Shown here: one piece after another, positions 2,973 through 56,128 of the stretch
How the letters are laid out: each line of letters opens with the position of its first letter
Position numbering within the stretch: position 1 is the stretch's first letter
Virus record (IMG/VR): IMGVR_UViG_3300023180_005138
Span: 1-64,000 of that record
DNA length: 64,000 nucleotides
Origin: a virus
Direction: 5' to 3' (one strand)
Made by a program: the position numbers and the translations under genes
Notes under the pieces: generated by a model
The model's database searches: none
Told to the model about the DNA's origin: nothing
Seen by the model: the letters and a program-made list of their open reading frames with translations, nothing else

Positions 2973-3086
2973 TTATGTGCAAATGCTTAAAGCAATTGAC
3001 ATTATTTGTTTAACATTAACATTAGCTGGAAAGCTAATTACTGCTAAACATATTAATAATAAAATTAACCAATATTCAGGTTTCAT
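2973..3086 (-). CDS. Small hydrophobic protein (37 aa)
   Basis: Hand-found: MKPEYWLILLLICLAVISFPANVNVKQIMSIALSICT; ATGA overlap with upstream curlin stop. Confidence 0.4.
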   Translation of the reverse strand: MKPEYWLILLLICLAVISFPANVNVKQIMSIALSICT

Positions 3087-3883
3087 TGGCCTTGTGTAAC
3101 ACTTACACTACAACCGCCTGTGGTTTGACAGTCTTGCGTCAAACTATATGATTGTGCAGTGCTGCCTTGTTGTAACATATATAGGGATGTGGCATACAAA
3201 CCACTTAATGTAACTGTAGCACTGTGACCAGCATTACCTGTCTGTGCCATATCAACATCATTATTAGAATTATTAATAGTCAAGTTCATTGTCTTATTTT
3301 GGTTGCTGTCTTGTCTCATATAAACATTATTAGAATTACCGTATATACCAACTGTCATACTATGTTCGTGTCCAGAGTTGTTTGCTCGTTGTGCGCCGAG
3401 TAGTATGTTATTTGATCCGTGTATGTCTAATTGTGTAAAGTGTCCACCATACTCGTAACTATCGTAAGAATATGATCCACCAGTTGTTACAGTATATCCT
3501 TGATAAAAATCAACAGTGTTACTGTTGCCTGCGATATGAAACTCAAATCTATCACCACCACACACTGATTGATTACATAATTGTTTTACTGTAAGAGAAT
3601 TGCTATCACCGTCTAGGTCGCCGCCCCATGATGCGCCACTACCCCATGCTGTAGTATATCCAATATAACCATCTTTGCCCTTCTGTTCGATATTAACTGT
3701 GTTATTAGCACCGCCAAAACTAAAGTTAGTTATGTTATCACTACCCTCTACTGATACTGTAATATTGTTTGAGTTACCACTAGTAACTTGATTTATAGTA
3801 ACTGCATTATCCGCAAAAGCCTCAGTTCTGATTAATAACAATAACAGTATCGGAAGCGTTTTCTTGAGTGTGGAGAATGACAT
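3083..3883 (-). CDS. Curlin-like repeat protein (CsgA/CsgB-like), secreted
   Basis: Signal peptide; N/Q/G-rich repeats (GSNN, QxG, NxVxxxQ); SD AAGGAGGT; sits in csgG-csgF cluster. Confidence 0.7.
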   Translation of the reverse strand: MSFSTLKKTLPILLLLLIRTEAFADNAVTINQVTSGNSNNITVSVEGSDNITNFSFGGANNTVNIEQKGKDGYIGYTTAWGSGASWGGDLDGDSNSLTVKQLCNQSVCGGDRFEFHIAGNSNTVDFYQGYTVTTGGSYSYDSYEYGGHFTQLDIHGSNNILLGAQRANNSGHEHSMTVGIYGNSNNVYMRQDSNQNKTMNLTINNSNNDVDMAQTGNAGHSATVTLSGLYATSLYMLQQGSTAQSYSLTQDCQTTGGCSVSVTQGQ

Positions 3884-17169: not shown

Positions 17170-17187
17170 TTATTTATTTCCACAATT

Positions 17188-17216
17188 AGAATAGCACACT
17201 TTTCAGGTTTGTGCAA
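17188..17216 (-). promoter_or_regulatory. Sigma70-type promoter
   Basis: TTGCAC-17-TATTCT with TG at extended -10. Confidence 0.65.
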
Positions 17217-17260
17217 ATTCAAAATTTCATTAATTCCTGCACTGCATTTTAGCCAGTGCT

Positions 17261-17554
17261 TTAGTCATAGGTTTCAAGCAATGTAACTCGTCGAACCCTA
17301 TCATTTTCCCAAACTTCACGTTTGTCATAGAAACGACAAGTTTCAAGATGATCTAGGTAATCATTCATACGTTTAGCTGCTCGATTATACGCACGAGCTT
17401 GAATATCGCTCCAGACACGCACAGAGATAGACTCCATCCAATCAATAGCTAGACGAGGATTCCAACGAACTACATTAGGACATTCACGAATATAATTATT
17501 TACATCCCAAGTTGAAAATCCTAGATTCTTAGATGTTTCTTTTCTTTTAACCAT
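17261..17554 (-). CDS. Hypothetical protein
   Basis: ORF in small-gene run. Confidence 0.6.
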   Translation of the reverse strand: MVKRKETSKNLGFSTWDVNNYIRECPNVVRWNPRLAIDWMESISVRVWSDIQARAYNRAAKRMNDYLDHLETCRFYDKREVWENDRVRRVTLLETYD

Positions 17555-17729
17555 TTTTTACACGATCCATATTTAGTTGAAAATCAATATAAACATTACG
17601 GAGAAAGAGTGCTGCCACAAATTCTCCATTACTCTCTTTTAGTTCTTCATACTCTTCTAGGAGGATAGTCGCTGATTCGTGACCTTGATTAGATAGTTGT
17701 ATGAAGTACTGTTTTGCTTTTAGGTACAT
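17547..17729 (-). CDS. Hypothetical protein
   Basis: SD AAGGA. Confidence 0.55.
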   Translation of the reverse strand: MYLKAKQYFIQLSNQGHESATILLEEYEELKESNGEFVAALFLRNVYIDFQLNMDRVKNG

Positions 17730-17737
17730 ATTTATCC

Positions 17738-18004
17738 TTATAGACCTGCCAATCCTGTATTTGACTGAATTTTTAGATCTTCTCTTGTTTTACGATTAAG
17801 CTCTTCGATAGCATCTACGCGTTCTGGCGAGAACACTAGATGAATACCTTCTAGAGCCAACTCAATTCGTTCGCCTTTATCATTAATAAAGAAACGAACA
17901 CTTGTCCCCTCAATTATGCCGTCTTCCTGTACATTTTTGATGTGTCTCCAGAAGAAGGACCGATGAGGGCGATACTTAACTTGATATTTAATAGCTTTTG
18001 CCAT
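17738..18004 (-). CDS. Hypothetical protein
   Basis: SD GGAGG. Confidence 0.65.
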   Translation of the reverse strand: MAKAIKYQVKYRPHRSFFWRHIKNVQEDGIIEGTSVRFFINDKGERIELALEGIHLVFSPERVDAIEELNRKTREDLKIQSNTGLAGL

Positions 18005-18023
18005 TGTTTTCCTCCATTTTCTT

Positions 18024-18052
18024 ATTATACTAAATTTAAGTCTGTTTTACCA
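18024..18052 (-). promoter_or_regulatory. Leftward promoter of divergent pair
   Basis: TGGTAA-17-TATAAT (weak -35). Confidence 0.5.
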
Positions 18053-18091
18053 GAAAAATTTAGCAAATAAGCGTTTATCATGATATTTTAA

Positions 18092-18120
18092 TTGACTTTG
18101 GTATGGCACTATGATACCAT
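18092..18120 (+). promoter_or_regulatory. Rightward promoter of divergent pair
   Basis: TTGACT-17-TACCAT, ATG 6 nt downstream. Confidence 0.65.
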
Positions 18121-18126
18121 ACAATT

Positions 18127-18393
18127 ATGCGTAATTTAGTAGAAATATCAGCATATCGCATTGACTTTAAAGAAACTATAGACCACTATGAAGAGCAAGG
18201 CTTCTCATATGTAAGTTCACATGTTACGCCAGAGCAAAATAAAACTGGTGAAATTACTATTGTTTTTGAAGGTTCACGCGAATATATTGCTGAAATTTCA
18301 GATGCAGACGGTCATCGTGCGTTCTTGCAATTCGATGACGGAACCGAATCTCCTTTATATATTAAACGAGAAAGAAACTTTTGGGAAGATTAA
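18127..18393 (+). CDS. Hypothetical protein (probably leaderless)
   Basis: ATG at predicted TSS, no SD. Confidence 0.6.
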   Translation: MRNLVEISAYRIDFKETIDHYEEQGFSYVSSHVTPEQNKTGEITIVFEGSREYIAEISDADGHRAFLQFDDGTESPLYIKRERNFWED

Positions 18394-24855: not shown

Positions 24856-25066
24856 AACTATAATGCTAAAGAGAGGAATACTCGATAACGCAGGAAAAGC
24901 GACAACTAAAGCTTTAAATAATTTAGGGTTTAAAACTGTAGAAGATGTTAGAATTGGAAGATGCATCTATCTTACTACAGACAAAGATATTGAACCCATA
25001 GCTCAGTCTCTTTATAATAGTGTTATGGAAGAGTATGAAGTTAAGTGTCTTGATGACGTAGACTGA
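24833..25066 (+). CDS. purS: Phosphoribosylformylglycinamidine synthase subunit PurS
   Basis: I.LK.GILD..G.A...AL..LGF..V.DVRIG...L.NSVMEEY; GTG start with SD AAGGGG (alternative leaderless ATG 24863). Confidence 0.85.
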   Translation: MSQKSYKITIMLKRGILDNAGKATTKALNNLGFKTVEDVRIGRCIYLTTDKDIEPIAQSLYNSVMEEYEVKCLDDVD

Positions 25067-25108
25067 AAACTGAACTGGACCGGGGGGCAGTACCCCGCGC
25101 CTCCACCA
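25061..25108 (+). ncRNA. ssrA: Two-piece tmRNA, acceptor piece (5' end approximate)
   Basis: T-arm CGGGG-GGCAGTA-CCCCG, acceptor strand CGCCTCC-A-CCA. Confidence 0.88.
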
Positions 25109-25129
25109 TAAACATATGAAGGAAAAACA

Positions 25130-25258
25130 ATGGATTGGTTTACAGCAGATTTAATACATGCAATGAACGAGACATCGTGGGTCGATGGCATTGGAACCAT
25201 TGTTGTTCTACTTGGTGCTTACTTTGTATACAAGTGGATTAACAATAAATTCAAATAA
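25130..25258 (+). CDS. 42-aa single-TM protein inside tmRNA intervening segment
   Basis: SD GAAGGA; MDWFTADLIHAMNETSWVDGIGTIVVLLGAYFVYKWINNKFK. Confidence 0.7.
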   Translation: MDWFTADLIHAMNETSWVDGIGTIVVLLGAYFVYKWINNKFK

Positions 25259-25273
25259 TCGTGTGTTTATGAT

Positions 25274-25456
25274 GGGGGCGAAATAGGATCGACAGGCAGA
25301 TAATAGGAAAGCCGAGAGACAGGTGCGCAAGCGACCTTAACCGCAAGAAAATCAATAAATGCAAACGATAATTTCGTAGCATCTGAGAATTATGCACTAG
25401 CTGCATAATCTTTCTGGGGTTCGGTAGGTTCCTAGCAACAGAATACCTACCATTTT
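25274..25456 (+). ncRNA. ssrA: Two-piece tmRNA, coding piece; tag ANDNFVASENYALAA (25361-25408)
   Basis: GGGGGCG pairs with CGCCTCC incl. G3.U70; AAATAGGATCGAC D-loop; AATAAAT-GCA resume; 3' hairpin GGTAGGT/ACCTACC + TTTT. Confidence 0.92.
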
Positions 25457-42027: not shown

Positions 42028-43427
42028 TGGCACTAGACTTACAAAAACTTGCTATCCGAAGATTGTTGGATGGCAAAGACCCTGATTTTTATTCTAAATT
42101 AACCCCTGTGTACTTCACAGGGGCTAATTCTGCTTTGTTCAATAGAGTTCAAACATTTTACAAAGCTAATATTAGAATTCCAACTTTAGATGAGTTTCAG
42201 GTATTAAAGAAAGAATCCTCTCTTCAAGAGTATTTTGATACTCAAATTCTTGATGAAGATAATAAATATGATGAAGTTGCAGATGAATTTTTGGTCGGGC
42301 AACTACAGGATTACTATATCCGAGAAGAAACTATTGGATTCTTAGACAAATTTATTAATGATTTATCAGAACTAGAAAAAGTAGAAATAGTAGATCAACT
42401 ACAAACTCATTTATTAAATCTAAATAAGGCTCTTCCAATGACGGACGAGCTTTACGATGTTGCAGATCTAGATTTCTTTCCAAATCCTGATGATTTTATA
42501 TTACATCCGTCTGGATTAAGTGCTGAGTATGACTCTGCAAATGGAGGGCTTGCGCTACAAGAACTGGTATTACTTGGAGGGCGTCGAGGCTCTGGTAAAT
42601 CTATTATAAGTTTAAATCTAGCTATAAATAGGTTTTTACAAGGTAATACTATTGCATTTTTTACAATCGAAATGCGATATAAAGAAGTTTATGATCGTCT
42701 ACTAAGTATTCTTAGTGGAGTTCCTTTTCTATCTATTTTTAAGAATGAACTATCTAATGATCAAAAACTATCCCTTGTAAAAGCAAAGATTGATAATTTT
42801 TATGCTAAAGATTCAGTCATTGATGATTGGTACAAAGAATTATATTCTACAAAAGATTTTAAGAAGTTTGAGAAACGAGTAAAGTCGGAAAAACCTCCTT
42901 TACGAGACAATAGATTTTTTATTATTGATGATGAAGGACTGACCCTTAATCGTATTGATCATTATTGTAATATGTTTTCTAATCAATATGATAAATTTAA
43001 TATGGCTGTTGTAGATTATATTAATATTATTAAACATGACGACTCTAAAGACTGGAAAACACAAATTGTATTAGCAGAAGCTTTAAAAGGTATGAGTCGT
43101 AAATTTAATCTTACAATGCTGTCTCCTTATCAGATTGACGCAACTGGTGAAGCCCGATTTGCTAAAGGTATTCTTGATAGTGCAGATAGAAGTTTCGCTT
43201 TCTTTCCAGCAAAAGAAGGAGATGATAGAGCGCAAGAAAATAAGCTACAGATTCATACAACAAAGATTCGTAATGGTAAGCATATGAGTTTTGATGTTTA
43301 TATGGATTGGGCTTGTGTAAAAATTGACCCATCTCAAAGTCAGTCTATTAATGCCGCTCCGCATCGTGGAGCAATGTACGGAGACGATGAGAACGGAAAA
43401 TCATCAGAAGTGAGTCGCGACCTATGA
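42027..43427 (+). CDS. Replicative DNA helicase (T5 D6/DnaB-like)
   Basis: GGRRGSGKS Walker A, FFTIEM, VVDYIN, SPYQ, RFAKGILD.AD. Confidence 0.92.
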   Translation: MALDLQKLAIRRLLDGKDPDFYSKLTPVYFTGANSALFNRVQTFYKANIRIPTLDEFQVLKKESSLQEYFDTQILDEDNKYDEVADEFLVGQLQDYYIREETIGFLDKFINDLSELEKVEIVDQLQTHLLNLNKALPMTDELYDVADLDFFPNPDDFILHPSGLSAEYDSANGGLALQELVLLGGRRGSGKSIISLNLAINRFLQGNTIAFFTIEMRYKEVYDRLLSILSGVPFLSIFKNELSNDQKLSLVKAKIDNFYAKDSVIDDWYKELYSTKDFKKFEKRVKSEKPPLRDNRFFIIDDEGLTLNRIDHYCNMFSNQYDKFNMAVVDYINIIKHDDSKDWKTQIVLAEALKGMSRKFNLTMLSPYQIDATGEARFAKGILDSADRSFAFFPAKEGDDRAQENKLQIHTTKIRNGKHMSFDVYMDWACVKIDPSQSQSINAAPHRGAMYGDDENGKSSEVSRDL

Positions 43428-44305
43428 ACATGATTGATGTTTTAGAGCAGCACGGATTAAACTATGAAAAAACTAATAATCCAATAGAAATTGTTTTACA
43501 ATGCACTTCTGGTAATCATGCAGATAACAGACCAAGTATGATGTATAACTTAGATAAAGATATATTTCATTGTTGGTCCTGCGGTTTCAAAGGAACAAAA
43601 CGTCGTTTTCTACAAAGTATTGGTATAAATACCGATATACCTTTTGATAGTAAACAGCCTTTTAAAATTCAAAAATTACGCGATAAATTAAATGAAGTAA
43701 TGTTTGAAGATAATATGACAGTTCCAGAGGATGCTCGGTCTGTTAACGGAACTGTACGCAATATCAGTGCTACCACCTTAAAAGATTTTGAAGCTTTCTT
43801 TACTGAGAAGCTTGGGCTAGAAGATTATATTTGCTTTCCTGTATCACAATTTGGTAAAATAAGATTTATAGAAGGTAGAAACAGATTTGCAAAATCTGAG
43901 AAACCAAAATATTATCGTCGTCCTGCTAAAGCTAGATCATCAGATATACTTTTTCCGTTGGATAAGATAAAAAACAAATCACAACTTATCTTAGTAGAAG
44001 GTTTATTTGATATGCTAAATATGTGGGACAAAGGTTATACCAATACCGTATGCGTATTTGGTGCAACTAACTTCAGTACTCCTAAACTGGAAGTTCTTGA
44101 TAAAATTGGAACAACTTTTGTTGAGATACTATTTGATGGAGATGCTGCAGGAGTATCTGGTGCAAACAAAATAGCAAACCTTTTAGAAAGACGATTTATA
44201 CAGTCAAAAATTATTAAACTACCGTCTGGTAAAGACCCAGGCGACTTAACACAAGATGAATTAAACATGATATTACCAAAGGATAGATATAAAAATGTCA
44301 AATAA
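43424..44305 (+). CDS. DNA primase (Zn finger + TOPRIM)
   Basis: C...H.D..PS...FHCWSCG; LVEGLFD, FDGDAAG, KDPG. Confidence 0.92.
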   Translation: MNMIDVLEQHGLNYEKTNNPIEIVLQCTSGNHADNRPSMMYNLDKDIFHCWSCGFKGTKRRFLQSIGINTDIPFDSKQPFKIQKLRDKLNEVMFEDNMTVPEDARSVNGTVRNISATTLKDFEAFFTEKLGLEDYICFPVSQFGKIRFIEGRNRFAKSEKPKYYRRPAKARSSDILFPLDKIKNKSQLILVEGLFDMLNMWDKGYTNTVCVFGATNFSTPKLEVLDKIGTTFVEILFDGDAAGVSGANKIANLLERRFIQSKIIKLPSGKDPGDLTQDELNMILPKDRYKNVK

Positions 44306-52241: not shown

Positions 52242-53066
52242 ATGGCAAAAAAGTCACTAAGTGATTTTACTACAGTAGAAGCAGAGGAAAATTCTGCTCC
52301 TACTGGGGCCTTATTAGTAGGCCCAGAAGGTCAGACACAAGTTGACCTACAAAAACTAAGAGAAACCTGTTCTGTATTTTTTGCTACACCTTGCTATGGT
52401 GGTATGATTACAGACCAGTACTTTTTAAGTATTTTTAAAGCATCTCAAGAATTAGTAAGGCATAATATTACCTTCCGACTAACAACCCTTAGAAACGAAA
52501 GCCTTGTTACACGAGCTAGAAACATTCTTACTGCAATGTTTTTAGATTCTGGTGCTAGTCACCTATTTTTTATTGATGCTGATATAGAATTTGAACAAGA
52601 CGCAATTATTAGAATGTTAGCTATGGATAAGCCTATTATCGCAGCAGCATATCCTAAAAAAGCTCTACCAATTCAATATGCTATGAATTTCAAGTATATT
52701 GATCCTGTAAAACAACAAATCAGAGTAGAAAACGGGGCAGTAGAAGTTTGGGACGCATCTACAGGATTCTTCTGTATTAAACGTGAAGTTTTCGAAAAAA
52801 TGATGGTTGAATATCCACACCTTCATTATAAGAATGATAGTAATATTGACCCTAAACTACAAAAATATTGCTATGCATTTTTTGATACAATGATTGATGA
52901 AGATGAAAATGGTGACAATCGTTATCTATCAGAAGATTATACTTTCTGTCGTCTTTGGCAAAAGATGGGAGGAGAAATTTGGATGGACCCTAATACTAAA
53001 CTAAATCACGTAGGATCATATACTTTTGAAGGTGATTTAGGTAAAATTATTAATATGAAGAGGTAA
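52242..53066 (+). CDS. GT-A fold glycosyltransferase-like protein
   Basis: ATPCYGG, ESLVTRARN, FIDADI, TGFFCIKR, YLSEDY.FC..W...GG.IW. Confidence 0.75.
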   Translation: MAKKSLSDFTTVEAEENSAPTGALLVGPEGQTQVDLQKLRETCSVFFATPCYGGMITDQYFLSIFKASQELVRHNITFRLTTLRNESLVTRARNILTAMFLDSGASHLFFIDADIEFEQDAIIRMLAMDKPIIAAAYPKKALPIQYAMNFKYIDPVKQQIRVENGAVEVWDASTGFFCIKREVFEKMMVEYPHLHYKNDSNIDPKLQKYCYAFFDTMIDEDENGDNRYLSEDYTFCRLWQKMGGEIWMDPNTKLNHVGSYTFEGDLGKIINMKR

Positions 53067-53069
53067 TCA

Positions 53070-54245
53070 GTGAAACGTATTCTACTATTAGGAAGTGGTG
53101 AATTAGGTAAAGAAGTTGTTATTAGTGCTAAAAGACTAGGAATGCATGTAGTAGCTTGCGATAACTACTTCGGAGCACCTGCTATGTCAGTAGCAGATCA
53201 TGATGTTACTTTTGATATGCTTGATGCAAAACAACTTGAACGTGTTATAGATAAATATAAACCTGATTATATTGTTCCTGAAATAGAGGCTATTGCTACA
53301 GAAGTTTTACTAAAGAAAGAAGCAGAAGGATACACAGTAGTACCCTCTGCTAAAGCTGTAAACCTTACAATGAATCGTGATAAAATTAGAGATCGGGCAG
53401 CGGAGCTAGGCATTCGTACTGCCCGATTTTCTTATGCAGAGTCTTTAGCTTCTTTATATTCTATTGCAGATGAAATTGGATACCCTTGTGTAATAAAACC
53501 AGTAATGAGTTCGAGTGGTAAGGGACAGTCGATAGCAAACTCTGTAGAAGACCTAGCTTCTTCTTGGCAATATGCTGTGGATAATATGAGAGGAGACAGA
53601 GAAAAAGTAATCATAGAAGAGTTTATTAAATTTGATTATGAAATCACTCTTCTCACAATTAAACAACAAAATGGTCCTACTTTATTTTGTCCTCCTATTG
53701 GGCACCACCAAGAAAGTGGTGATTATAAACATAGCTGGCAACCTGCTACAGAAGAAACTTTTACAGGACATATTATTGAATCAGATGCTAGACAAATTGC
53801 AAAAACTATAACAGACGATTTAGGAGGTTCTGGCATATTTGGAGTAGAGTTTTTTGTAATAACTTCTTCAGATAGACCAGAAGTTATATTTAGTGAATTA
53901 AGTCCTCGTCCACACGATACAGGTATGATCACTATGATATCTCAAGAATTATCAGAATTTGATCTACATGTTAGGGCATTTACTGGACTTCCTATACCAG
54001 AAATTAAAGTTAGACCTAATAAAAATAAATGGGCAAGTGCTACTATTAATATTCCATCTGATACTAAATCAGGGTTAGTTTATGATCTAGAAGGTATTGA
54101 AGAAGCATTGGAACTGGGATGTGATATTAGAATCTTTGGAAAACCAAGTACAAAACCTAATAGAAGAGTAGGAGTGTTACTGTCTAATAATTTAGATACA
54201 GCACTAGAGGCTCAGAAGTTAGTCAAAATCAAGACGCAAGTGTGA
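53070..54245 (+). CDS. purT: Formate-dependent GAR transformylase
   Basis: LLLGSGELGKE, APAM.VA, KPVMSSSGKGQS, FSELSPRPHDTGM, SEF.LHVRA; GTG start. Confidence 0.95.
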   Translation: MKRILLLGSGELGKEVVISAKRLGMHVVACDNYFGAPAMSVADHDVTFDMLDAKQLERVIDKYKPDYIVPEIEAIATEVLLKKEAEGYTVVPSAKAVNLTMNRDKIRDRAAELGIRTARFSYAESLASLYSIADEIGYPCVIKPVMSSSGKGQSIANSVEDLASSWQYAVDNMRGDREKVIIEEFIKFDYEITLLTIKQQNGPTLFCPPIGHHQESGDYKHSWQPATEETFTGHIIESDARQIAKTITDDLGGSGIFGVEFFVITSSDRPEVIFSELSPRPHDTGMITMISQELSEFDLHVRAFTGLPIPEIKVRPNKNKWASATINIPSDTKSGLVYDLEGIEEALELGCDIRIFGKPSTKPNRRVGVLLSNNLDTALEAQKLVKIKTQV

Positions 54246-54404
54246 CGTCTTAGGAAAGTAGCGCACTCCGTGCGCCCGGCTGTGTCTCTCCGAGACAACG
54301 TGAATGAACATCTTAGGTCAGCGCTGTCCAACAGCTGTTCACCTGCGGTGGTATTTATTCACTAATTATGCACATAGAATAGCATACTTTTTGCCTTTCG
54401 GCAA
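54246..54404 (-). other. Non-coding GC-rich hairpin array (candidate sRNA or ssDNA-structured element)
   Basis: Minus-strand hairpins TTGCC-GAAA-GGCAA, CACC-GCA-GGTG, GCTG-TTGGA-CAGC, TGTCTC-GGA-GAGACA, GCGCAC-GGA-GTGCGC; CCTAAGA twice. Confidence 0.6.
54376..54404 (-). promoter_or_regulatory. Leftward sigma70-type promoter into hairpin array
   Basis: TTGCCG-17-TATTCT with extended TG. Confidence 0.55.
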
Positions 54405-54448
54405 GTATATAAAATTAAAATTTTATCGTTGCTCTTTCTGGTGCAACG

Positions 54449-54482
54449 CTGTCATAAAACTGTAACAAAACTGTGATATATT
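54449..54482 (+). promoter_or_regulatory. Pho box (three 11-bp direct repeats) with -10
   Basis: CTGTCATAAAA-CTGTAACAAAA-CTGTGATATAT; 18-bp box + 10 bp + TATATT. Confidence 0.8.
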
Positions 54483-54486
54483 TATA

Positions 54487-54933
54487 ATGAAACTAAAACA
54501 TATTCATGCTCATATGAAATCTGCTTTTAACTATGCAGAGTGTTCCACAGCCGTCCGTCTTCAGGTCGGCTGTGTTATTGTAAAAGAAGATCGTATTATT
54601 AGCATCGGATACAACGGTATGCCAAGTGGTTGGAACAACTGTTGCGAAGACACTGTATTTTTTCAAGGTGGCAAGCAATTAGTAGAGCCTATACTAAAAA
54701 CAAAACCAGAAGTACTACATGCAGAATCTAATGCTATAGCTAAACTAGCACGATCACCTGAGAGTGGAGAAGGAGCTGTAGCTTTTATTACCCACGCTCC
54801 TTGTTTAGATTGTGCAAAACTTTTGTATCAAGCTGGTATCTGTGAAGTATACTACTCTCATAGCTATAGACTCACAGATGGAATAGATTTTTTAAAACAG
54901 TGTAAGATTAAAGTTCATCAGGTAGAACTATGA
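54487..54933 (+). CDS. dCMP deaminase
   Basis: RLQVGCVIV, GYNGMPSG, HAESNAI, THAPCLDCAK. Confidence 0.93.
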   Translation: MKLKHIHAHMKSAFNYAECSTAVRLQVGCVIVKEDRIISIGYNGMPSGWNNCCEDTVFFQGGKQLVEPILKTKPEVLHAESNAIAKLARSPESGEGAVAFITHAPCLDCAKLLYQAGICEVYYSHSYRLTDGIDFLKQCKIKVHQVEL

Positions 54934-55166
54934 AAAGAGTGATGTTTTCTGCTAAATTAAGTGATGAACTTGCAGAAGAACTCACAGATGCTATAGTAGA
55001 GATGCTACAAGAGGAACCTGAGATAGAGATTAAAGATCTATCTCGTAGATTAAAAATAGAGACGATTAATCTTCCCTGGGGAGTTGATTCTCCCTTTGCC
55101 TATATATTTAAAGAAGATCAAAAAACCTGGTGTTGTCTCAAACCTCAATATAGAAAGAGAGACTAA
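54930..55166 (+). CDS. Hypothetical protein
   Basis: ATGA-coupled to dCMP deaminase. Confidence 0.55.
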   Translation: MKRVMFSAKLSDELAEELTDAIVEMLQEEPEIEIKDLSRRLKIETINLPWGVDSPFAYIFKEDQKTWCCLKPQYRKRD

Positions 55167-55168
55167 AA

Positions 55169-56128
55169 ATGGATGCAGTAACTATTTGGATGGCGATCGG
55201 ATTTCTCATGGCCGCATATAGTGTTATAGCAAACGATTCAGTCCAAACGCTTGGAACTTGGATTGCATCAAATAACGAACGATTCCACTGGACAGTTTTA
55301 TGGACCGCCTCTTCGGCGGTTTTGCTTTGGGCGCTATGGTTCGGTTGGTATATCAATGGAGGCGACATTTCATATGGTCGCCTAACTAAGATACCTTTCC
55401 AAGAGGTTCAATGGTATCATGCAGCTGCTCCAGCAATCCTTCTACTTCTAACTCGTGTGGGTGTCCCTGTCTCTACTTCCTTCCTCGTTCTCTCTGCATT
55501 TGCATCAACCTTTGTGTTAGAAAAGATGTTGATGAAATCTATCATGGGATATGCTGTAGCAGCTGTCACTGCCTACGCACTTTGGCATATCATTGCTCGA
55601 TTAATTAATGAAAAGAAGCCTATCGGTGATCACTGGAGTCGCCCATACTGGCGTGTAGCACAGTGGGTAACTACTGGTCTACTTTGGTGGACTTGGTTAT
55701 CACATGATATGGCAAACATTGCAGTGTTTCTTCCCAGACAAGTTCCATGGGATTTAATGATTATCATTTCAATCATCTTTGTCGCAGGACTAGGATGGAT
55801 GTTTATGGAACGTGGAGGTAAGATTCAAAATATTGTGTTAGAAAAATCTACAACACGATATATTAGATCAGCTACGTTAATTGATTTAGCGTATTTTGTT
55901 ATTCTCTACTTCTTCAAAGAACTCAATAATATTCCAATGTCAACCACATGGGTATTCGTTGGTCTACTGACAGGACGAGAACTAGCAATTGCTTCTGTAT
56001 ATAATACTAAGATGAAACAAATCTTTCCTTTAGTCACTCGTGATTTTATGAAAATGATGATTGGTCTTGGTGCTTCAGTAGGCATTGTACTATTAATTCA
56101 TTATGTAATTGTACCTAACGGTTACTAG
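55169..56128 (+). CDS. PiT-like inorganic phosphate transporter
   Basis: Multiple TM segments; IANDSVQTLG and SHDMANIA signature-like motifs, PVSTS and PMSTT repeats of the PiT fold. Confidence 0.7.
   Translation: MDAVTIWMAIGFLMAAYSVIANDSVQTLGTWIASNNERFHWTVLWTASSAVLLWALWFGWYINGGDISYGRLTKIPFQEVQWYHAAAPAILLLLTRVGVPVSTSFLVLSAFASTFVLEKMLMKSIMGYAVAAVTAYALWHIIARLINEKKPIGDHWSRPYWRVAQWVTTGLLWWTWLSHDMANIAVFLPRQVPWDLMIIISIIFVAGLGWMFMERGGKIQNIVLEKSTTRYIRSATLIDLAYFVILYFFKELNNIPMSTTWVFVGLLTGRELAIASVYNTKMKQIFPLVTRDFMKMMIGLGASVGIVLLIHYVIVPNGY

Follow-up and report, generated by a model that had tools for sequence, protein, structure and literature searches.

The window analyzed here, 64,000 nt of viral DNA, covers positions 1 to 64,000 of a 117,378-bp IMG/VR record that is complete by CheckV. 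On the evidence of its polymerase, its SSB homology, and its gene order, the phage is T5-like. The family A DNA polymerase shares 41% identity with Demerecviridae enzymes, the 219-aa protein encoded upstream of the element described below is a homologue of the T5 SSB D11, and the genes follow one another as in T5: a D10-like helicase gene, a gene for a 153-aa protein, the SSB gene, a 274-aa gene, and then, further on, D12 (SbcD-like) and D13 (SbcC-like). The phage primase is encoded at 43424 to 44305. The element lies at 46% of the genome length, in a 241-nt gap between a purT-like gene (positions 53070 to 54245, plus strand) and a dCMP deaminase gene (54487 to 54933, plus strand). Pho-box-like repeats (CTGTCAT, CTGTAAC, and CTGTGAT, with 11-bp spacing; 54449 to 54477, plus strand) are found just upstream of the dCMP deaminase start at 54487. 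Elsewhere in the genome, a two-piece (permuted) alpha-type tmRNA gene occupies positions 24986 to 25454 on the plus strand (Rfam RF01849, 117 bits; RF04321, 116 bits) and encodes the tag peptide ANDNFVASENYALAA; its type hints at an alphaproteobacterial host. The genome contains no tRNA genes. Transcription diverges at a ~1-kb noncoding stretch (17170 to 18220), where the cumulative GC skew also has its minimum, and a search of the divergent region at 17 to 18 kb for repeats and iterons returned nothing clear.

The gap had been described as a GC-rich noncoding island in AT-rich DNA, and it is one: between 54200 and 54350, GC content is 53 to 59%, compared with 35% genome-wide, a level that few other spots of the genome reach. 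The island starts at the upstream gene's stop codon. The noncoding element that it contains is ~110 to 150 nt long and extends slightly past the interval 54246 to 54404, singled out by a sequence-only reading of the window, to ~54222. All of the hairpins listed in that reading, together with the promoter-like hexamer pair, were located in the window exactly where it had placed them. We refer to three of the hairpins, all read on the minus strand, as A (CACC-GCA-GGUG; 54340 to 54350), B (UGUCUC-GGA-GAGACA; 54283 to 54297), and C (GCGCAC-GGA-GUGCGC; 54261 to 54275). To judge how readily such structures arise by chance, we counted C-GNA-G hairpins with stems of at least 4 bp on both strands of the 117-kb genome. 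There are 16, compared with ~7 in shuffles, and three of the 16 cluster within 90 nt on one strand, the minus strand, at the element. No GC-rich triloop hairpin of the C-GNA-G type occurs elsewhere in the genome, and a covariance model of the element has exactly one match in the 117 kb. The three hairpins and the promoter are real features, far from chance.

Diverged copies of the element, set in other genomic surroundings, were found with a 16-nt pattern taken from one hairpin, followed by a second pattern and an nhmmer profile. These searches gave 77 matches on ~75 IMG/VR viral contigs (64 distinct). When relatives were instead gathered through PurT, the island was present at that spot in near-identical phages only. 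Near or distant matches to the element DNA numbered zero in 50,697 GenBank phage records. T5 has no copy, the best match of the model to it (E = 0.11) falling inside D13. An 18-nt core pattern searched against bacterial genomes gave >120 matches among those listed, all attributable to chance and all to the pattern only, never to the full element. Against Rfam 15, nothing at the element in the window reached the gathering threshold, with only chance-level matches at E values up to 10 between 54100 and 54600, and the element in three of its relatives (L153, L234, and L137) likewise gave nothing. By these comparisons, the element is a new conserved noncoding family, matched neither in Rfam 15 nor in the GenBank phage records. 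Its carriers form a widespread, uncultured T5-like branch, recovered from salt-marsh, estuary, and freshwater samples.

The search patterns lie in hairpins A and B, so the invariance of these two hairpins in the collected set is partly built in. A less biased sample of 80 loci was collected via the SSB protein alone. Sixty of the 80 carry the element, always in single copy, oriented opposite to the SSB gene, and 0.84 to 3.5 kb downstream of it; of the 20 loci with no element, 18 end no more than 3.2 kb from the SSB gene. This SSB-anchored set shows the same conserved blocks, hairpin A included. One locus, L420, is syntenic over 7 kb and lacks the element, and an unrelated 430-nt AT-rich gap (positions 3030 to 3461 of that contig) precedes its D12 gene. 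In another (L204, positions 2156 to 2415), the hairpin C module is present in two tandem copies.

The locus is arranged in the order SSB, the 274-aa gene, variable cargo, the element, variable cargo, D12, and D13. In every locus, the flanking genes lie on the strand opposite to the element. In the window (52242 to 56128) as in the loci of relatives, variable cargo genes accumulate on either side of the element, each side being a hot spot, among them purT, the dCMP deaminase gene, and a permease-like gene, bounded by the conserved SSB and 274-aa genes on one side and D12 on the other. Because the upstream gene varies among relatives, purT is an incidental neighbor, and so is the suggested convergence of the RNA on it. 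Two more distant purT-bearing viral contigs (L009 and L011) have tRNA genes directly downstream of purT; we considered a tRNA remnant at the corresponding spot in the window and rejected it, as ARAGORN finds none.

Comparison across relatives also sorted the structures seen in the window. All five minus-strand hairpins of the sequence-only reading exist in the sequence, but just three are conserved among the ~56 to 64 distinct homologues. A fourth, the palindrome over the −35 region (54391 to 54404; TTGCC-GAAA-GGCAA in its minus-strand reading, TTGCC-TTTC-GGCAA on the plus strand), belongs to the window's subgroup, where one compensated variant (TTGAC/GTCAA) occurs; most relatives have no hairpin there, and this one is a local by-product of the −35 region. 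The fifth, GCTG-TTGGA-CAGC (54323 to 54335, minus strand), is likewise confined to the window's subgroup, and three changes at this site in one relative (L002) fit instead a CAGC...GCUG pairing with a U-G pair. A repeated unit, GGA-NN-GCGCT...CCTAAGA, was also correctly read from the sequence, yet it is lost even in a relative with a 98% identical PurT.

What the family retains, in minus-strand order, begins with a 5′ box, AGUGAA (54358 to 54363; TTCACT in the plus-strand reading), in which GTGA is invariant in 56 sequences. Hairpin A follows, with an invariant stem and a GCA or GUA loop in 56 of 56 sequences, and then the box AGCUGUUG(G/A)ACA (54325 to 54336), also written as a AGCUGUUGAACA-like box, in which AGCU is invariant and the remainder is at least 90% conserved. 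Beyond a variable middle come hairpin B (loops GGA in 28 sequences, GUA in 18, GAA in 8, and GUUA in 2), a G-rich linker (CAGCCGG in the window, 54276 to 54282; consensus CAGCnGGG), and hairpin C (loops GUA in 31 and GGA in 25). All three hairpins have a C-G closing pair and a minus-strand loop of the form G-N-A. The GGA loops ascribed to a leftward RNA in the sequence-only reading do not survive this comparison: the conserved loop is GNA. Of 56 copies each, hairpin B has GGA in 28, hairpin C in 25, and hairpin A in none.

Covariation across related phages, which the sequence-only reading had proposed as a check, bore the structure out: hairpins B and C covary strongly. The covariation score was 0.254, compared with 0.105 in shuffles, none of which reached it (0 of 500), and with 0.03 to 0.09 in slid controls; paired cells made up 87.5%, compared with 77.4% in shuffles. 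Four pairs of hairpin B and five of hairpin C are changed on both sides. Stem pairs of hairpin B include one that is UA in 31 sequences and GC in 22 and another that is UA in 31, AU in 20, and GC in 2, and a further example in hairpins B and C is a pair that is GC in 33 sequences and CG in 22. The five inner pairs of hairpin C are never unpaired in 55 sequences. Hairpin A shows no covariation, as it never varies, and could equally be a protein-binding palindrome.

We then considered which strand folds. At the outermost stem pairs, 31 and 12 sequences have G-U and none has A-C; these positions are stem ends, where base composition could give G-U by chance, and G-U is rare inside the stems (3 in ~550 cells). 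In 41 of 55 relatives the minus strand gives the stabler fold, with z-scores that are alike, and overall this fold is modestly better than shuffles (z of about −1.5). In the window alone, the plus-strand fold has a z-score of −2.65, compared with −1.18 for the minus strand. The fold stabilities of the two strands are too similar to decide between them. The loop motif, the G-U pairs, and the promoter described below point to the minus strand as the one that folds.

Beyond the three hairpins, the family gives less uniform structure. RNAalifold applied to the raw alignment returned two hairpins only. Three long-range helices can be drawn: P1 is 81% paired, with some covariation and with another register in the window's subgroup; P2 is 76% paired and competes with P3 for the AGCU box; and P3, in which the G-rich linker may pair with the AGCUG box, is 85% paired and would cross P1. 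A terminator scan of the window identified a terminator-like hairpin, AAGACG...CGUCUU followed by GAUUUUGA (54222 to 54252, minus strand), that overlaps the purT stop codon (54243 to 54245). Across the family, this fourth stem is not kept in register, no conserved terminator stem was found, and a U-rich tail follows hairpin C in 26 of 52 relatives. The element is noncoding: relatives differ by 1- to 2-nt indels, and the minus strand holds no open reading frame of at least 40 aa. Since it is opposite to every flanking gene, and since its neighbors differ among relatives, it is not a UTR. A search for phage targets complementary to the RNA gave chance-level 11-mers only.

The minus-strand hexamer pair TTGCCG-17-TATTCT had been proposed as a promoter, and its key positions and 17-nt spacing are kept in 49 distinct relatives. 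In the −35 element (TTGCCG, sigma-70 type; 54399 to 54404), TTG is present in 48 to 49 of the 49. The extended −10 element (TGC plus TATTCT; 54376 to 54384) retains TG at −15/−14, T at −12, and A at −11 in all 49 and T at −7 in 45. The spacer is exactly 17 nt in every relative, while positions −10 to −8 and others in between vary. A consensus promoter scan misses this promoter, which has 8 of 12 matches. The conservation pattern is that of a working extended −10 promoter pointing leftward, and from its geometry the predicted transcription start is the A at 54369 (minus strand), 7 nt past the −10 element.

The same DNA carries a candidate plus-strand promoter, TTCACT-16-TAGCAT (54358 to 54385), whose −10 element (54380 to 54385) overlaps the minus-strand −10 element; the conserved TATGCTA block of the minus strand reads TAGCAT on the plus strand. 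TTCACT and TAGCAT separated by 15 to 17 nt are found in 48 of 49 relatives, the −10 element being TAGCAT in 42 and TAGCAC in 5. Most relatives have the start of the following plus-strand gene, often D12, 25 to 45 nt downstream, with the ribosome-binding site of that gene inside the minus-strand promoter spacer. The minus-strand promoter alone accounts for TTG at −35 and for T at −7, and the plus-strand promoter alone accounts for the T at its own −7 and for the TTCAC block. Since neither promoter by itself accounts for all of these conserved positions, the site is probably a back-to-back bidirectional promoter with starts ~23 bp apart. Promoters that fire in both directions are common in bacteria (PMC12825309, PMC10268837). 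Four metatranscriptome runs yielded unstranded, read-length contigs over 53982 to 54836, at a depth of 2 to 5 and without transcript ends; those that span 53982 to 54506 have a depth of 2 to 3, and some cross the predicted minus-strand promoter.

The most likely reading of these data is that the element is a small RNA gene, with a replication start site less likely. Put in full, namely as the gene for a new minus-strand structured small RNA of ~110 to 150 nt, the first-seen member of its family, this is a proposal to which we give about an even chance. It rests on family-wide conservation, covariation, conservation of the promoter, and the fixed position and orientation of the element. The sequence-only reading had offered a ~130-nt leftward RNA presenting GGA loops and convergent on purT; the leftward RNA with its own promoter, its covarying hairpins, and its minus-strand loops fits what we found, but the GGA loops and the purT convergence do not. 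A leftward RNA fits best because of the promoter, the covariation, and the combination of the minus-strand loop motif with the G-U pairs.

We infer the production, the end, and the role of such an RNA as follows. Host sigma-70 RNA polymerase would start at ~54369 on the minus strand from TTG-N17-TGn-TAnnnT and run leftward, against all neighboring genes. The transcript would comprise the AGUGAA 5′ box, hairpin A, the box after it, the variable middle, and hairpins B and C, and would end either past hairpin C (~115 nt) or past the fourth, weaker hairpin and its U tract at ~54222 (~148 nt). Each of the three hairpins would present one C-GNA-G triloop. Our guess is that these three uniform caps would serve as recognition modules for a phage or host protein, with the conserved single-stranded boxes perhaps providing a second contact. 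The RNA may share its back-to-back promoter with the D12/D13 nuclease operon. Several observations speak against a small RNA: C-GNA-G triloops are much stabler as DNA, a conserved terminator was not found, the overall fold beats shuffles only modestly, AGUGAA and TATGCTA are also readable as a plus-strand promoter, and the search patterns account for part of the invariance of hairpins A and B.

The first of these observations leads to the alternative that the hairpins act as DNA, as the sequence-only reading had also envisaged. Leftward transcription would form an R-loop across the GC-rich stretch, and the displaced minus DNA strand would fold into three C-GNA-G mini-hairpins that mark a site of primase or helicase loading; the mini-hairpins would resist SSB and reannealing, and the RNA or a primase product would prime DNA synthesis. 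To our knowledge, no T5-like phage has an origin defined at the sequence level, and none is annotated in the T5 stretch that we examined. Mini-hairpins of the d(C-GNA-G) type are far stabler than their RNA counterparts; the priming sites G4 oric and RSF1010 ssiA contain them, as do N4 promoters (PMC13037366). At our element, C-G-closed G-N(N)-A mini-hairpins of this kind are present, three per element, and each keeps its closing C-G and the G..A of its loop while stems covary. The conserved promoter is directly upstream, and its R-loop would expose exactly the hairpin-bearing strand. The element is also single copy, nearly universal, and fixed within the replication and recombination module, between the D11-like SSB gene and D12/D13; its location at nearly half the genome length and the want of a family-wide terminator would suit an origin as well.

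Against this, the T4 R-loop origins oriF and oriG need a promoter and an A+T-rich unwinding element (PMC3016281), and the 110 nt downstream of our promoter are of the opposite composition, the noncoding spot with the highest GC content in an AT-rich genome, with no A+T-rich unwinding element. As a possible origin mark, GC skew gave no signal: it has no switch at 54.3 kb and follows gene orientation only, skew here tracking transcription. A repeat search of the genome found no iterons, the syntenic locus L420 does without the element over 7 kb, and the corresponding junction in T5 and in a Vibrio T5-like phage contains just a plus-strand terminator. On balance we consider a leftward R-loop with mini-hairpin loading sites unlikely. 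The more particular proposal is that the element is the replication origin of this T5-like lineage: a host-polymerase transcript would open the duplex, and the three mini-hairpins would keep the displaced strand open and serve as the loading or priming signal, uniting R-loop priming of the ColE1/T4 kind and hairpin recognition of the G4/ssiA kind in a duplex phage. This is also unlikely, and marginally more so.

A further explanation assigns the conserved DNA a role at an operon boundary. Here the rightward arm of the back-to-back promoter would drive D12/D13 or cargo genes, and the leftward arm and the hairpins would act in cis only, through polymerase competition, collision with upstream read-through, or the stopping of antisense transcription. 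Much of the plus-strand evidence agrees with this, including the near-universal TTCACT/TAGCAT pair (48 of 49) with its −10 element overlapping that of the minus strand, the short distance to the next plus-strand gene in most relatives, the ribosome-binding site in the minus-strand spacer, and how common such promoters are. T5 has a terminator at this junction, and cargo accumulates on both flanks of the element, as it does at operon borders. However, the hairpins have no plus-strand U tracts and so are not intrinsic terminators of the upstream operon, the strict conservation of a loop motif and two boxes exceeds what a roadblock would need, and the minus-strand −35 TTG and TG extension look selected for real leftward output. 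We regard a purely cis-acting boundary as quite improbable, more so than the R-loop origin.

An RNA encoded on the plus strand, in the form of 3′-UTR stabilizer hairpins or a terminator of the upstream operon, would account for an island that begins at the upstream stop codon, for the better plus-strand z-score in the window, and for the (unstranded) RNA contigs that traverse the region. We find it very unlikely: the loops would become U-N-C, a triplet not known to form a stable cap, A-C mismatches would take the place of the G-U pairs, no U tracts lie past the stems, the minus-strand fold is the stabler in most relatives (41 of 55), and the conserved minus-strand promoter would be left unexplained.

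Two of the window's own loops are GGA, as in the hairpins of CsrB/RsmZ sponges, and the RNA could on this account be a CsrA/RsmA sponge. This is not supported because GGA is not conserved: GUA or GAA replaces it in half of the hairpin B and C copies, and it never occurs in hairpin A. Each RNA would present 0 to 2 GGA loops, as triloops, unlike the known sponges. CsrA is moreover uncommon in alphaproteobacteria, the group at which the alpha-type tmRNA hints for the host. We consider a sponge highly improbable. Least credible of all are single-stranded hairpin promoters of the N4 type, to be read by a single-subunit RNA polymerase of the phage. A C-GGA-G triloop on a 5- to 7-bp stem is of the N4 P2 hairpin type (PMC13037366), but the analogy, drawn in the sequence-only reading, fails because no single-subunit polymerase gene was found (PF00940, RNA_pol, has no match in the complete 117-kb genome, and control genomes gave none either) and because the hairpins occur at one locus only, which also rules out a genome-wide hairpin promoter motif, and the phage is in any case T5-like, and G, U, A, or C can each stand in the middle of the loop.

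Among known systems, the closest in DNA form are hairpin I of G4 oric and RSF1010 ssiA, which share with the element short GC stems, a G-N(N)-A cap with C-G closure, placement on one strand, and a replication context (PMC13037366). They differ in that they act on DNA that is already single stranded or has been opened by RepA/RepC, whereas the duplex genome of this phage would need an R-loop to expose its hairpins. ColE1 RNA II is a transcript-primed origin. Like it and like T4 oriF and oriG, the element has a promoter firing into a short noncoding stretch in or near replication genes, but its downstream stretch is GC rich and conserved in both sequence and structure. If the DNA form is what matters, the element would be the first mapped origin or priming signal for T5-like phages and would show mini-hairpin DNA occurring naturally within a duplex genome. 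The D11/D12 junction of T5 and of Vibrio phage PG07 is the same syntenic site, from the SSB gene to the SbcD-like gene; it differs in holding a single plus-strand terminator of ~25 nt with a UUCG loop and nothing on the minus strand.

The small RNA reading finds its counterparts in phage small RNAs with sigma-70 promoters, which are likewise short and noncoding, have their own promoter and covarying stem-loops, and lie between protein genes. The element differs from them in having no Rfam 15 match, in being antisense to a whole gene block, and in its three uniform C-GNA-G triloops and the lack of a conserved terminator among the relatives compared. Its anatomy is unusual in presenting one cap type on three hairpins, in a promoter that fires against the gene block, and in the probable back-to-back promoter held in common with an SbcCD-like nuclease operon. 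If it is expressed as RNA, it would be a clean candidate for a protein-binding phage regulator.
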